Source: a virus. From it: a stretch of 64,000 bases of DNA. The stretch lies in the IMG/VR virus record IMGVR_UViG_3300046047_000262; one strand, written 5' to 3'. Position numbers and translations under genes: made by a program. The notes below the pieces were generated by a model. It had not been told where the DNA came from. It searched no databases and saw nothing but the letters and a program-made list of their open reading frames with translations. Positions 4,220 through 11,028 of the stretch are shown piece after piece. Every line of letters starts with the position of its first letter. The first letter of the stretch is position 1.

Positions 4220-4248
4220 AATGGTGATAGTCAGAATTACTATCATCG

Positions 4249-4335
4249 CGGTTGATGAGGGATTCGAACCCCCGATAGGTTTTCACCTATGCTTGTTTTC
4301 GAAACAAGTTCCTTCAACCACTCGGACAATCAACC
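4249..4335 (-). tRNA. tRNA-Ser(CGA)
   Basis: Loop TT-CGA-AA, V-arm, G73. Confidence 0.93.
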
Positions 4336-4356
4336 ATAATTATCAATATGATAACG

Positions 4357-4429
4357 TTGGACTATCGGGAATCGAACCCGAATCTATGGTGCCACAGACC
4401 ATCGCTCTAACCGTTGAGCTATAGACCAC
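4357..4429 (-). tRNA. tRNA-His(GTG), G-1 opposite A73
   Basis: Loop CT-GTG-GC. Confidence 0.85.
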
Positions 4430-5075: not shown

Positions 5076-5160
5076 ATTTTCAGTCGGATGGATCGTCAAT
5101 CCATCGTTACGGTTGTTCCTACCGTGGTCTTATATAATGACTTTAGCCTACGACTGAACG

Positions 5161-5244
5161 TGCATCCGACCTGACTCGAACAGGCAAGTCCATGATGGAC
5201 GATGGTTCCTAGGACCATTGTGTTTACCATTTCACCACGGATGC
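5161..5244 (-). tRNA. tRNA-Leu(TAG), C33
   Basis: Loop CC-TAG-GA, V-arm, A73. Confidence 0.9.
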
Positions 5245-5249
5245 ATGTG

Positions 5250-5323
5250 TGCCCACAAGAGGGCTTGAACCTCTGACCTTGGAATTATGAGTTCCGCGCT
5301 CTGACCGACTGAGCTATGCGGGC
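5250..5323 (-). tRNA. tRNA(CAT), Ile2- or Met-type
   Basis: Loop CT-CAT-AA; third CAT tRNA in the array. Confidence 0.85.
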
Positions 5324-5462
5324 ATTAATGGCGGCTTTCCCGCTAGCACGATGTTCTCATCGAACGAGCAACGACATTGTACGGGCATAACAACCTGAGT
5401 TGATTAAGTTAATAACCACTTGAGCCAGGTTGACCTTGAGGCGACTGTTGCCATACCCCTCG

Positions 5463-5526
5463 TAGTCTCACGAGGAATCGAACCTCGTCGTTTGATGGAA
5501 CCTCAGGAATACTACCAATTGAGACC
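5463..5526 (-). ncRNA. 64-nt shrunken tRNA with the tRNA-Glu acceptor stem
   Basis: GGTCTCA/TGAGACT-A identical to Glu(CTC) at 7496; intact T arm; D and anticodon arms reduced. Confidence 0.55.
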
Positions 5527-6461: not shown

Positions 6462-6615
6462 GCATTTCTGGCTCGGGATAACCAATCCCAAGCACTATTG
6501 AACCAATATGATGACCAGCAGAATGGTTAACCTCTACTATTCACCATCAAACACCCCTATCACATGATCCTGTCACCATTCACATGTAAGCATACGGAAT
6601 ATAACCATATACCAG

Positions 6616-6689
6616 TACCTTCTACGGGATTCGAACCCGTACTAAACAGTTCCTTAGACTGTCGCCTCTACCAATTGGGCTAAGAAGGC
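6616..6689 (-). tRNA. tRNA-Leu(AAG), A34, no long V-arm
   Basis: Loop CT-AAG-GA; 5-nt variable loop; Leu-type D arm; A73. Confidence 0.88.
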
Positions 6690-6830: not shown

Positions 6831-6833
6831 GGG

Positions 6834-6917
6834 GTGTACAACGGGACTCGAACCCGCATGGGATAACTCCCATCAGGGTCACAACCTGATGTCGCAAACC
6901 ATATCGACCTTGTACAC
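6834..6917 (-). tRNA. tRNA-His(GTG) with long V-arm
   Basis: G-1:C73, loop TT-GTG-AC, V-arm TGGGA-GTTA-TCCCA. Confidence 0.85.
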
Positions 6918-6992: not shown

Positions 6993-7196
6993 ATATCATC
7001 CTTTACGGAGATGAATTGAGATGGCACTCAATCTAGTATCCCATGCCATCACCGCAGGGTTCGTCGCCCCCTGATTAAACGTGCAACGATGATAACCATC
7101 ATTATCAGCGCTTCCTGATGATCCGACTCATTCTCACTAAACGCTGATTAGACTATTTGAATGAGCTATGTGATATCAATATGTACTCACGTTGCG

Positions 7197-7268
7197 AGCC
7201 TTGACTTAGAATCGAACTAAGATCAACTGCTTACTAAACAGTCGCACGAACCATTGTGCTATCAAGGC
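7197..7268 (-). tRNA. tRNA-Thr(AGT), A34
   Basis: GCCTTGA acceptor, loop TT-AGT-AA. Confidence 0.9.
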
Positions 7269-7976: not shown

Positions 7977-8039
7977 ATGTTGACGTTCCCTATGTGTGGT
8001 CGCGTCATGATGATGTATAAGCAAGATCGTTGCTTATCG

Positions 8040-8120
8040 TGGTGCATGGGGGACTCGAACCCTCGAACCCTGTGGGAGCTGGTTTACAGCCAGCCGCAAT
8101 TGCCGCTATGCGAATGCACC
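8040..8120 (-). tRNA. tRNA-Tyr(GTA)
   Basis: G1:C72, loop CT-GTA-AA, V-arm, A73. Confidence 0.92.
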
Positions 8121-8148
8121 ATAAAGGTGGGTCAATGCGTTATACTCG

Positions 8149-8215
8149 CGTACATTGGGGAATCGAACCCCGCTGTTTGAAGAGTTTCACTTCACTTTGA
8201 TCCGGACACCAGTCC
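8149..8215 (-). pseudogene. tRNA-like remnant
   Basis: T arm GGGG TTCGATT CCCC, TGAAG/CTTCA arm, GGAC-TGGT-GTCC D-like arm; no pairing acceptor found. Confidence 0.35.
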
Positions 8216-8240
8216 AAAACCGAGCTGCAGATCGGTTTCG

Positions 8241-8312
8241 TGCCTCAGGAGAATTATGATATCTCGACCCTCTGTTTAAGAGACAGATGCTCTTCCTCTG
8301 AGCTACTAAGGC
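8241..8312 (-). tRNA. tRNA-Lys(CTT) with ATCATAA T loop
   Basis: Loop CT-CTT-AA; T arm GAGAT-ATCATAA-TTCTC. Confidence 0.85.
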
Positions 8313-8313
8313 G

Positions 8314-8385
8314 TACGGGTAGATAGAATTGAACTATCCTTTCTTCTGTATCAGAGAAGTGTTCTAACCGATGAACTATACCCGT
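8314..8385 (-). tRNA. tRNA-Ile(GAT)
   Basis: Loop CT-GAT-AC, A73. Confidence 0.88.
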
Positions 8386-8494
8386 AAACGAACGGCTCCC
8401 TCTCAAAGTCATTGCTCCTCGTTTTAGAACAAACATTATGAGGGGGTTACCGGGCAGACTGTCTCTCGACTAAAGCTGGTTGCCAACAACTCAG

Positions 8495-8577
8495 TGCCCT
8501 TACTCGGACTCGAACCGAGACTCCTTACGGAAGCCGATTTTAAGTCGGCCGTGTCTACCAATTCCAACCATAAGGGC
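8495..8577 (-). tRNA. tRNA-Leu(TAA)
   Basis: Loop CT-TAA-AA, V-arm. Confidence 0.93.
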
Positions 8578-8582
8578 ATTCG

Positions 8583-8712
8583 GAGTACGTATCGGAATTG
8601 AACCGGTATACGTGGTGCGCTTAACCAATACCCACGAATATGAATATCTTCATATCACGTAGGCGCTGGAATTGGACCAGATCATCACGCACCACGCCAG
8701 ACCACTCGTACC
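8583..8712 (-). ncRNA. Double-elbow tRNA-mimic RNA
   Basis: Open acceptor plus T arm joined by a perfect 9-bp helix to a second T arm plus loop-closed acceptor. Confidence 0.6.
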
Positions 8713-8794
8713 TTCCTACCAGATTCGGTAAGACTTGGAAAGATGCATCATTCCAAGCATTATGAGACATTATACTAGTATTTCTCATAACCTG

Positions 8795-8876
8795 TGCCTC
8801 TACTCGGACTCGAACCGAGACTCCTCACGGAAACTGATTTTAAGTCAGTCGTGTCTACCAATTCCACCATAAAGGC
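8795..8876 (-). tRNA. tRNA-Leu(TAA), second copy
   Basis: Loop CT-TAA-AA; paralog of 8495 and 6748. Confidence 0.93.
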
Positions 8877-8990
8877 ATAATGTGAGCATCGCACTCACAA
8901 GGTTGCTATAGCGTTCGGCTCATTAGTGGTCACAACTAACCATGATAGTACTTAAACTATGCTGCTAACTCAAAGCCTACTGATACTGCG

Positions 8991-9062
8991 TGCCCCCGGA
9001 GAATTACGATATCTCGACACGCGGATTAAAAGTCCGCTGCTCTTCCTCTGAGCTACAAGGGC
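8991..9062 (-). tRNA. tRNA-Lys(TTT) with ATCGTAA T loop
   Basis: Loop CT-TTT-AA; T arm GAGAT-ATCGTAA-TTCTC. Confidence 0.85.
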
Positions 9063-9152
9063 ATGATGTTGACGATTGTACACTTGCCAACAGGTTTGCG
9101 TGATATATTCGCTTATCGCGGGTAGACGCATCTACCTGATAACCATGAGAAC

Positions 9153-9266
9153 AAGATGTACGAGGAATCGAACCTCGGTCGCCGACCCTGGCAATGAAGG
9201 AGTCGAACCTTCCACAGGATGGGTCTAACATCCTGTCTGACCTACCATAACAGTCAGCATACATCT
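9153..9266 (-). ncRNA. 114-nt tRNA-like RNA with two T arms (nominal anticodon AGA)
   Basis: AGATGTA/TACATCT acceptor; 5-bp D stem; 8-bp anticodon stem; two GG-TTCGA-NT-CC arms. Confidence 0.65.
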
Positions 9267-9290
9267 CAACATTGTTCTCACATGTCATCG

Positions 9291-9379
9291 CTGGTCTAGC
9301 AGGAATCGAACCTGCGATACCCTTTTACGGGATTCTGACGCATTAACAGTGCGTTGGCATGCCGCTTGCCGATAGACCA
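9291..9379 (-). tRNA. tRNA-Asn(GTT) with long V-arm
   Basis: U1:A72, G73, loop CT-GTT-AA; about 20-nt variable region with CCC-GTAAAA-GGG. Confidence 0.85.
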
Positions 9380-9695
9380 ATAAGTACGGGATCTTACCGT
9401 TCCTCAATGATACTCTTCTCAATACCATTAACCATGTATACCTGCGATAATAGGAGTTAATCACTGTAAGCATTTGATGCTTCGGATATGTTCCATAGTG
9501 TATGCGATGTGTCCTACGCGAGATGCAGCATAGATGCACGGTTCACATAGATTATCGGACAAGCCATACTCCGTTAATCGTATTGATGAGATATGACAAG
9601 GTGGTCACAGGGCACCTACACCTCGTCATTGCACGCGGTTATCAATGATAACCATGTAAGCCATTGGTGTCCCTTAGCTTACATTATGCGTACCG

Positions 9696-9766
9696 TGCTC
9701 CCACGGGGAATCGAACCCCGATTTACTGATTAAGAGTCAGCAGTTCTACCGTTGAACTATAGAAGC
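9696..9766 (-). tRNA. tRNA-Lys(CTT)
   Basis: Loop CT-CTT-AA, canonical T loop. Confidence 0.92.
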
Positions 9767-9966
9767 AAAAACCCGTATGACCCTTTGAGGGTAACTCACT
9801 CTCAAACTAGAATGGGTCATACGGGAAAATCACCAAACAAAGGAGAAGGATCGAACCTTTCCTAGCAAAAACCGTATGACCGTTTGAGGACAACTCGCTC
9901 TCAAACTGGAAATGGGTCATATGGTAAATAATACGCTAACAAAGGAGTACTGTGCCTTGCCCTAGC
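9767..9966. repeat. Two tandem 100-nt structured repeats (candidate sRNAs)
   Basis: Units 9767-9866 and 9867-9966 share the CCGTATGACC...TTTGAG..CTCAAA...GGTCATA hairpin, AACAAAGGAG and CCTAGC. Confidence 0.85.
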
Positions 9967-10008
9967 ATACCAAACCGCATATGCTTCTGCCGTATTGCTA
10001 CGACATAG

Positions 10009-10079
10009 CTCCCCGAGAAAGAATCGAACTTTCATTAAATGATTAACAGTCATCCGTTCTGCCCTTGAACTACCGGGGA
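10009..10079 (-). tRNA. tRNA-Asn(GTT)
   Basis: TCCCCGG acceptor, G73, loop CT-GTT-AA. Confidence 0.92.
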
Positions 10080-10087
10080 ATAAAGAT

Positions 10088-10566
10088 GCCGGTGATAACG
10101 CTCACCGGCGGGCGGCATGGTTGATACCTTGATGAGATCATGCTGTTCTCATCATTGGTCAGGATCATTCGTCCTGATTGGTCAGCTCTCATGCCATCAT
10201 GATGACTGGTATGATTGCGTATGTGATTCATCTGAAGAAACTTTTTTAATGACTACGGGCCGTCAGTGTTTCATGAATGACGTTGGTGTCCCGCTCATGG
10301 GTTATCATCGCGTGCTCGGAATACAATGTAATCCTCGTCAGGTGTTGCCACCATCGGTTGTAAGGGCGATGTCTTCCCCATGCTCGATCCTGTGTTCAGG
10401 CGCTCCGTCACGTGCTCACATGGTGACCAAACACGATAATTCTTTAACATTCCGGTATCGTGACCGTCGCATACATCTCCCGCAGTAATGAACTGCCATC
10501 CTCGTTAAGTTATGTGACCATCCTATCGTGACTTGCCTTGGTTGTCAACCTCGGCGTGTCGCGATG
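10088..10566. ncRNA. Candidate large structured RNA(s)
   Basis: About 480 nt with no credible ORF, packed with nested hairpins. Confidence 0.4.
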
Positions 10567-10582
10567 ACCTCGATGATCATCG

Positions 10583-10656
10583 TCGGCTATGTCAGATTCG
10601 AACTGACGGTCTCCTGCTCCCAAAGCAGGCGGATTACCAAGCTTTCCTAATAGCCG
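10583..10656 (-). tRNA. tRNA-Pro(TGG)
   Basis: CGG start, loop TT-TGG-GA, A73. Confidence 0.92.
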
Positions 10657-10732
10657 TTATCTTTTCAATTTTTGTTTCCGATGAACCAGTGTATCATAAT
10701 CTTTCGATTACGCAACATCGGCGTGTCGGTCG

Positions 10733-10804
10733 TCGGAATGGACTGGTTCGAACAGTCGTTCTCCTGCACCCGAAGCAGGCGGATTACCACTTTCCTACAT
10801 CCCG
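10733..10804 (-). tRNA. tRNA-Pro(CGG)
   Basis: CGG start, loop TT-CGG-GT, A73. Confidence 0.92.
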
Positions 10805-10824
10805 TTACATTCTTCAATTATACA

Positions 10825-10859
10825 CTGAGCCCCGAATCCTTTAAGGGTCCGGGGCTCAG
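10825..10859 (-). terminator. Strong GC hairpin ahead of the first tRNA (terminator or attenuator)
   Basis: CTGAGCCCCG...CGGGGCTCAG inverted repeat. Confidence 0.55.
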
Positions 10860-10881
10860 AACATCTGATGTGTAATCACAC

Positions 10882-11028
10882 TTACACGATAAGCCCCACT
10901 CTCATGGGATAACCGAAATCTTGAATTGTATTATTCTGCAAGGACCATGACACTGGTTTCAGACATGGGAGCATGGCTGAACGCTTAATGTCATTACGAT
11001 GTATCATACTTGATTGTAACGATCTCAT
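10882..11028 (-). CDS. 48-aa leader ORF (MRSLQSS...MRVGLIV)
   Basis: GGAAGGAG Shine-Dalgarno 6 nt before ATG, directly downstream of a consensus promoter; below the ORF-track cutoff. Confidence 0.55.
   Translation of the reverse strand: MRSLQSSMIHRNDIKRSAMLPCLKPVSWSLQNNTIQDFGYPMRVGLIV

Follow-up and report, generated by a model that had tools for sequence, protein, structure and literature searches.

An oversized six-helix tRNA-like gene in the tRNA array of a giant mobile element: a candidate tRNA mimic

What might a tRNA-like gene of 114 nt, with six helices and two hairpins of T-arm sequence, be doing in an array of tRNA genes? The question is raised by a locus on the minus strand (9266..9153) of IMG/VR record IMGVR_UViG_3300046047_000262, of which a stretch of 64,000 nucleotides, referred to here as the window, was analysed. 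A role against defences that cut tRNA is now under discussion for the tRNA arrays of phages and giant plasmids, and the irregular members of such arrays are usually ignored because gene finders miss them. An earlier note on this DNA had described the locus as an oversized tRNA with two T arms, unlikely to fit the ribosome normally and possibly a decoy or a switch between alternative elbows. The analysis reported here followed the element through its architecture, the roles of its arms, its strain variants and its analogues elsewhere.

Architecture and setting of the element

The array of about 50 tRNA genes in which the element resides belongs to a giant mobile element. It makes up the first 10.8 kb of the window, where 47 genes were called by ARAGORN and 46 by the Rfam tRNA model, all of them on the minus strand, which is also the strand of the element. 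The immediate neighbours are tRNA-Lys(UUU) (8990-9062) and a 90-nt tRNA-Asn(GUU) (9290-9379), with the element lying about 23 nt downstream of the latter. A tRNA 5′ part at positions 1-42 of the window (direct-repeat family D19) makes it probable that the array extends further upstream. Beyond the array, the window encodes a pol III gamma/tau-like ATPase, an NAD-dependent ligase, GyrA, topoisomerase I and a sigma factor, together with a TraG/TrwB-type coupling protein, a VirB11-type ATPase, prepilin-type proteins, and a sortase with SpaA-like proteins. By their predicted products, these are replication and transfer genes of the sort that very large mobile replicons typically carry. A scan of 47 ORFs in the window brought up no gene for tRNA processing or defence.

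On the array strand, 62 T-arm-like hairpins occur, and 13 of them, besides the element's own two, lie outside called tRNAs (Table 1). Many of these orphan arms belong to degenerate or truncated tRNA-like pieces, so that the products of tRNA decay are evidently common in the array. A 63-nt acceptor-closed mini tRNA-like piece, for example, is found at 5464-5526, and a D-loop plus T-arm fragment directly follows tRNA-Gln at about 1822-1868. Several of the called genes are themselves unusual. Both the tRNA-Asn(GUU) next to the element and a tRNA-His(GUG) of 87 nt (6831-6917), each on the minus strand, carry a variable-region hairpin of about 15-22 nt, and normal-sized copies of the two occur at 10008-10079 and 4356-4428, respectively. 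Such long variable arms are not expected in class I isotypes like Asn and His. Other genes specify A at the wobble position, including Ala(AGC) at 2898-2971, Thr(AGU) at 7196-7268, Leu(AAG) at 6615-6689, and an Arg(ACG). A wobble A is unusual for bacteria in Ala, Thr and Leu tRNAs.

Table 1. Positions, in the window, of the parts of the element and of related features
Feature	Position	Strand	Details
5′ acceptor strand	9260..9266	-	AGATGTA; element positions 1-7; 7 Watson-Crick pairs with 9154-9160; pair probability 0.75-1.0
D-type arm	9237..9257	-	CTGAC/GTCAG with 11-nt loop TGTTATGGTAG containing GG; pair probability at least 0.97
Helix C	9214..9236	-	8-bp hairpin ACAGGATG/CATCCTGT, loop TTAGACC; unique in the window with up to 3 mismatches allowed; anticodon arm (earlier note) or extra hairpin at position 26 (serine-type register)
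Helix D	9196..9212	-	GAAGG-TTCGACT-CCTTC; T arm 1 by sequence, anticodon arm (CGA) by class II position
Hairpin E	9179..9194	-	UUGCC-AGGGUC-GGCGA; core GCC/GGC of 3 bp, extendable to 5 bp (UUGCC/GGCGA)
T arm 2	9161..9177	-	CGAGG-TTCGATT-CCTCG; immediately next to the 3′ acceptor strand, the canonical 7/5 arrangement of a tRNA
3′ acceptor strand and discriminator	9153..9160	-	TACATCT plus discriminator T (9153); no encoded CCA
Leader strand	9273..9281	-	GUGAGAACA; 9-bp leader-trailer helix; 9267-9272 (AUGUUG) forms a 6-nt 5′ bulge
Trailer strand	9145..9153	-	UGUUCUCAU; pairs with leader; includes the discriminator
Segment absent from diverged sister array	9064..9386		Contains the element and the long-arm tRNA-Asn 9290-9379
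Orphan T arms (starts)	1341, 1753, 1829, 2316, 5471, 5597, 5998, 6414, 7336, 7837, 8156, 8591, 9844	-	

The acceptor, the D arm, helix C, the two T arms and the small hairpin that had been described earlier are all present in the element, and each is perfectly paired; in fact, all 33 pairs are Watson-Crick, with no wobble and no mismatch. The CCA end of the earlier description has to be corrected, as the gene encodes none, and CCA is likewise not encoded in any array tRNA whose 3′ end was inspected. Beyond the acceptor, the flanks form a leader-trailer helix of 9 bp that prolongs the acceptor past a bulge (-14.4 kcal/mol). This duplex ranks as the second strongest among 48 array genes, for which the median is about -6 kcal/mol. 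No convincing promoter or terminator was found adjoining the element.

Chance can be excluded as the origin of this structure by the spacing of the T-loop motifs and by the fold z-score. The window holds two closely spaced pairs of T-loop motifs, and 100 shuffles produced none; the fold has a z of -3.15, with only 1 of 200 shuffles folding equally well. The nearest-neighbour model favours a form in which the two T-like hairpins pair with each other to give a single long arm (-44.4 kcal/mol) over the six-helix form (-39.3 kcal/mol), with the pair probability of each T-like hairpin alone at about 0.09-0.10. Models of this kind give no credit for the tertiary stabilisation of T-loops. Two further ideas about the parts of the element were discarded. 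A loop-loop kissing interaction between GACC of helix C and GGUC of hairpin E is compatible with the sequence, but it has a chance likelihood of about 5%, and a strain change at 9185 (run X4, below) would break it; helix C as a repeated palindromic mobile unit is at odds with its being unique in the window, where the direct-repeat families reflect generic tRNA similarity.

Standard tRNA finders do not recognise the native element. It is absent from the 47 ARAGORN and 46 Rfam tRNA-model calls in the window. The earlier view of a six-helix tRNA-like RNA is supported. A permissive Rfam scan brought up only tRNA-Sec (RF01852), at 20.1 bits against a cut-off of 47, and UCA occurs in no loop of the element. 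ARAGORN found no tmRNA in the window.

Which arm is which

The pattern used to define T arms also matches the anticodon arm of the array tRNA-Ser(CGA) at 4292-4308, whose loop TTCGAAA holds TTCGA, and for this reason the possible registers of the element were tested by a deletion scan. Each internal deletion of 10-49 nt was submitted to ARAGORN, for a total of 2,744 variants. A tRNA was called in 64 of them, and 56 of these calls were tRNA-Ser(CGA), every one following the loss of helix C, either alone or with part of the D arm. In the register thus restored, helix D serves as anticodon arm, hairpin E fills the place of the variable arm, and the T arm is T arm 2. Hairpin E and T arm 2 have the same two roles in the Rfam tRNA-Sec alignment, so that the assignment of T arm 2 is common to ARAGORN (with the deletion variants) and Rfam. 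Helix C was used as an anticodon arm, giving Ser(AGA), in 3 of the 64 calls, with inner coordinates and not the outer acceptor. The frame proposed in the earlier note, combined with the outer acceptor, gave no call in any of the 2,744 variants. By geometry, then, the element is a class II serine-type frame with an extra 23-nt hairpin at position 26.

Read as sequence, by contrast, helix D is a T arm of textbook form, with G53-C61 closure and the same TTCGACT loop as is found in the T-loop of the array tRNA-Cys. The claim of two T arms is not established: the T-loop of helix D is perfect as sequence, yet helix D sits where an anticodon arm belongs and the serine-type frame is the only one that ARAGORN recognises. 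The six-way junction can with equal justice be described as having "two T arms" or "two anticodon-type arms", and the earlier interpretation is accordingly rated as partly supported. Whatever the label, the element shows that a perfect T-loop hairpin can occupy the site of an anticodon arm.

Position 37 speaks against normal decoding in either register, in line with the earlier view that the RNA is unlikely to fit the ribosome normally. Both 7-nt loops, those of helix C and helix D, have U33 together with C37, whereas the residue at 37 is a purine in all 47 array tRNAs (34 A, 13 G), and neither loop therefore resembles a working anticodon loop. At the other end of the molecule, the 7-bp acceptor AGATGTA/TACATCT directly adjoins a 5-bp T arm with its T-loop, as in a canonical tRNA.

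One close comparison is with class II tRNA-Ser. Like the array tRNA-Ser(CGA) at 4248-4335, the element has an acceptor-T branch of 7/5, a long variable arm in which 1-3 bases at the foot are unpaired, and a 5-bp arm whose 7-nt loop spells CGA at the anticodon position; the combination of a long variable arm and a serine anticodon is obtained only when helix D is taken as the anticodon arm. The element alone has a 23-nt hairpin between its D and anticodon arms, and it differs further in having C37 where the serine tRNA has A37, U73 (the T at 9153) where the latter has G73, an A1-U72 pair, and a 5-bp D stem. The element and tRNA-Sec (RF01852) are alike in having a D stem and a variable arm that are both long, and perhaps also a 9/4 branch, this alternative branch being one of 13 bp that requires G-U pairs at both ends; unlike tRNA-Sec, it is without a UCA anticodon and has an excess of 29 nt in the anticodon region.

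Irregular tRNAs, which together with the species 1 and 2 RNAs of phage T4 are the nearest known counterparts of the element, have been described before. Mukai et al. 2017 (PMC5389517) reported allo-tRNAs of serine type, junctions that may have five stems, and irregular tRNAs encoded in polycistrons. According to passages of that paper and of PMC7609411, several irregular tRNAs are inactive in translation and have been proposed to be regulatory or tied to mobile elements or toxin-antitoxin systems. The irregular tRNAs of these two sources resemble the element in their serine-type long-arm frames, extra stems and clustering. Allo-tRNAs, as PMC5389517 presents them, are defined by a 12-bp acceptor-T branch of the 8/4 or 9/3 type, and the best pairing of the element is 7/5. 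The passages of PMC5389517 and PMC7609411 consulted here hold no mention of a six-way junction with a T-loop-like hairpin, and the supplementary figures of Mukai et al. may show similar junctions. A full-text literature search for "two T-arms" found no tRNA paper.

Strain variants, relatives and analogues

Arrays of similar genes are hard to assemble, and the earlier note had named an assembly check as a way to examine the element. Region 9060-9362 was looked for in the contigs of four bioreactor-sludge runs (X1-X4), and it is covered in all four, with at most one difference inside the element. X1 and X2 are identical to the window, and one of the two may be its source. X3 represents a slightly different strain with 2 differences, both in the spacer. 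X4, a more diverged strain, shows 6 listed changes: 4 within the 90-nt spacer 9063-9152, one within tRNA-Asn's variable arm, and one inside the 114-nt element, namely 9185 A>T in the loop of hairpin E, which is the sole strain change within the element. Because separately assembled contigs from all four runs span the element and both flanks, and because X3 and X4 carry a slightly different strain, an assembly artefact or chimeric contig is ruled out for practical purposes. The strain differences (1 of 114 positions in the element, 4 of 90 in the spacer) give a hint of constraint that is not statistically significant. Contigs were also what two of the four listed RNA runs (X16 and X17) provided, and they had no match on 9040-9400; being contigs only, they are uninformative on expression.

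A diverged sister array in X3 and X4 goes without the element altogether, joining 9064 to 9386 through 25 other letters (one contig in each run, with depths of 13.7 and 60.4, respectively). The element is thus dispensable. The same sister array also skips 9422-9580, which is replaced by 2 other letters.

The search for relatives was extended to several collections. Within the window, the best local alignment of the element to 52 array genes scored 20 over 114 nt, which rules out a recent chimera of array members, and no similarity to the six array Ser genes was found. When positions 8000-11000 were compared with phage records there was no match, and with plasmid records only one, of 76 nt and tRNA-sized. 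A loop-anchored pattern of the element had no hits in viral contigs and 120 loci in metagenome contigs (45 of 64 parts), the best scoring 45 of a possible 228. Since 120 is about the number that chance would give for 19 fixed bases, none of these is considered a relative. A search of viral contigs for the T-loops and spacing of the element returned 22 loci, none of them homologous. By anchoring on the flanking pol III gamma-like protein, two relatives with 40% identity were found, along with one of 31% in genomes. The arrays of the two closer relatives (49 and 47 tRNA matches) are without the element, and the sole closely spaced T arms in them consist of a Ser(CGA) anticodon arm beside its own T arm. 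In sum, no homologue was found in the viral contigs, metagenome contigs, genomes or relatives' arrays searched. The earlier note had held that homologues devoid of the extra arm would count against it, and this expectation is borne out only in part: the sister array is missing the whole element, and the arrays of the two distant relatives hold nothing similar.

In the two distant relatives (L001, L002), a tmRNA with the tag ANAIQDDYTLAV was noted at 5078-5440, a few kb from the tRNA arrays.

Analogues, in turn, are numerous. When viral contigs (6 of 64 parts) were scanned generically for pairs of T-loop motifs separated by 20-45 nt, at least 124 stretches were returned, for an estimated total of about 1,500. 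A perfect Watson-Crick acceptor of 7 bp surrounds both hairpins at 13 of 127 double-T sites, versus 3, 1, 0, 0, 0 and 1 in six offset controls; with G-U pairs allowed, the count is 30 versus 7-15. These numbers suggest that a single acceptor stem encloses about one in ten of the T-loop pairs that lie close together in viral contigs. The helix order of the element recurs in L025, L030/L070, L062, L089 and L115, as well as in L269 from a second scan, and in L025 and L269 there are six helices in identical order. Another arrangement is seen in L042, L015 and L078, where an outer tRNA-like gene, equipped with a D arm, a T arm and a perfect acceptor of its own, contains a complete tRNA (Phe, Ile and Arg, respectively) within its anticodon region.

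Some of the analogues are recognisable as tRNAs. Four oversized ones (113-121 nt) pass the Rfam tRNA cut-off over their full length, at 32.7-41.8 bits, among the 13 sources searched. In L269 and L254, the Rfam tRNA model puts the first T-like hairpin within the variable region. When 16 analogues were put through a deletion scan, the registers were mixed: in most cases the hairpin preceding the first T-like arm served as the anticodon arm, and Ser(CGA) frequently came second. One family, L253-L259, is made up of 7 loci with 5 distinct sequences. Its acceptor, variable hairpins and first T-like arm are kept by compensatory changes, and both T-loops are fixed. In addition, L263, L271, L278 and L279 represent a small family of RNAs made up of nothing more than two T-arm hairpins enclosed by a 7-bp closing stem, with two compensatory pairs distinguishing the closing stem of L279 from that of the others. 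Acceptor-closed RNAs with multiple T arms are therefore recurrent, and at least some of them are under selection. They are analogues of the element and not demonstrated relatives. As for a GG in the loop between T-like arms acting as a D-loop mimic, it occurs in several analogues and would be expected by chance in most stretches of 20-30 nt, and the idea was set aside.

Possible roles of the element

The reading tentatively preferred here is that the element is a real tRNA-derived gene that would be processed like the neighbouring tRNAs and would probably not decode, and hence that it is a tRNA mimic. The acceptor and T arm 2 form an intact canonical 7/5 "minihelix". Presumably co-transcribed with the rest of the array, the element could have this upper half accepted by RNase P, RNase Z and the CCA-adding enzyme. 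In the lower half, a T-loop-like hairpin and an extra 8-bp hairpin would replace the single anticodon arm, and since both have C37, normal use by the ribosome and the synthetases would not be expected. The resulting RNA might bind factors that read the upper half of tRNA and deliver no amino acid, and it could conceivably serve as a decoy or sponge in an array of a type for which a role against tRNA-targeting defences has been proposed elsewhere. Points in favour of such a mimic are the genuine DNA, the 33 Watson-Crick pairs, the fold z-score, the rejection by ARAGORN and Rfam, the outcome of the deletion scan, C37, the leader-trailer helix, the recurring layout, the four oversized analogues above the Rfam cut-off, and the compensatory changes in L253-L259; points against it are the failure to find a homologue, the sister array without the element, the commonness of tRNA decay products, a conservation signal too small for significance, the preference for a cross-paired fold, and the 47 scanned ORFs, among which no tRNA-processing or defence gene was seen. 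All told, a non-decoding mimic is the most likely reading and an inert by-product nearly as likely, while a working serine tRNA and a two-elbow switch are less likely.

An inert by-product would have arisen if a tRNA gene of the array gained a hairpin-sized insertion or duplication and retained no role of its own, and in an array of fast turnover it would be tolerated because the array is redundant. This explanation, a serious one even though it falls short of being the favourite, fits well with the 13 other orphan T arms and the degenerate tRNA-like pieces, with the neighbouring hairpin insertions in tRNA-Asn (90 nt) and tRNA-His (87 nt), with the sister array and the fruitless homologue searches in every collection consulted, and with two 7-nt loops that do not fit an anticodon loop. 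It has more difficulty with 33 pairs free of mismatches and wobbles, unlike the clearly decayed remnants of the array, and with an extra leader-trailer helix that is hard to explain as an accident. Nor is there a donor copy in the window, where the best paralogue scores 20 over 114 nt and helix C is unique, and the layout is conserved with covariation in unrelated phage families.

The remaining possibilities would have the element take part in translation or fold in two ways. That it is a working serine tRNA in a class II frame (CGA, or AGA on helix C), with its extra arm tolerated in translation, is improbable, despite the ARAGORN call of tRNA-Ser(CGA) for the variants without helix C. The connectors that flank helix D, hairpin E and T arm 2 do suit class II geometry, both 7-nt loops spell serine anticodons, other A34 tRNAs occur in the array, and engineered tRNAs with hairpins grafted onto the variable arm are described as remaining active (PMC7590224). 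Against this stand C37 in both loops, where all 47 array tRNAs have a purine, and the discriminator U, whereas SerRS, as set out in PMC7609411, reads G73. The acceptor begins with A1-U72, neither ARAGORN nor Rfam accepts the native sequence, and the array already has six canonical Ser tRNAs, one of them CGA. The switch proposed in the earlier note, in which helix C is the anticodon arm and two true T arms alternate on a single D loop, has the least in its favour of the biological readings and is quite unlikely. Helix D is indeed a perfect match to the T-arm consensus (GG-TTCGACT-CC), and the Rfam model places the first T-like hairpin of two analogues in the variable region. Yet no deletion variant restores a call in that frame with the outer acceptor (0 of 2,744), helix C has 8 bp and a C at position 37, and the folding model prefers the T-like hairpins cross-paired over either one alone.

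Comparison with other mobile genomes helps to place the preferred mimic. The species 1 and 2 RNAs of phage T4 are known stable transcripts, and their function is, to our knowledge, still unknown. Encoded by rnaC and rnaD (AF158101, 70908-71171), they resemble the element in being oversized (139 and 119 nt) and in lying within the tRNA cluster of a mobile genome; like the element, rnaC has a T arm and then an acceptor-like stem at its end. Their internal domains are unlike those of the element, and there is no sequence similarity, with local alignment scores of 11.5 and 9.0 against shuffle means of 10.3 and 9.9. RNAs of the present kind, if made and bound to protein, might help to explain this old puzzle. 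The tRNA array units of plasmids and phages are treated in PMC5966550 and PMC12803027, one of which calls the arrays a putative anti-defence system. These units have in common with the element's array the packing of dozens of tRNA genes on a giant mobile replicon, and the available text of the two sources describes arrays, not a six-helix member.

If RNAs such as this one are made and bound to tRNA-handling proteins, they would add a new layer to the conflict between phages and hosts over tRNA; if they are only debris, they would still be relevant to annotation and to how tRNA genes mutate in arrays. The element is moderately interesting alone and more so for pointing to a class of recurrent genes that escape gene finders. 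A bolder proposal is that the arrays of phages and giant conjugative elements hold an undescribed, widespread class of "two elbows" tRNA mimics, with two or more T arms, in which the upper half is kept and a second T-loop hairpin replaces the decoding arm, the RNAs acting as decoys or sponges for tRNA-targeting host factors. At present, this is a speculative and rather doubtful idea.

Several other unusual loci were noted among the analogues and in the searches for relatives. Of the 22 viral loci with the T-loops and spacing of the element, 7 (L261, L262, L265, L266, L270, L275 and L277) have a complete CCA-ended tRNA and, only a few bases after it, a solitary T-arm-like hairpin, GGTCGG/GGCCGG-TTCGATT-CCGAC/CCGGA. 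The flanks of an oversized double-T gene, L107, form an 18-bp leader-trailer helix of -25.3 kcal/mol; as a feature of the class, leader-trailer pairing was rejected, being strong among 21 analogue loci (23 rows) only in L107 and in L047 (-11.6). Three T-loop-like hairpins follow one another in L040/L047 and L034 (viral) and in L211 (metagenome), with one acceptor stem in L040, L047 and L034. Finally, a 105-nt gene found at G001:C1:10792-10896 and G002:C1:166303-166407 (L249 and L250) is above the Rfam tRNA cut-off, at 44 bits, and has a 9-bp hairpin with a 22-nt loop in place of the anticodon loop.
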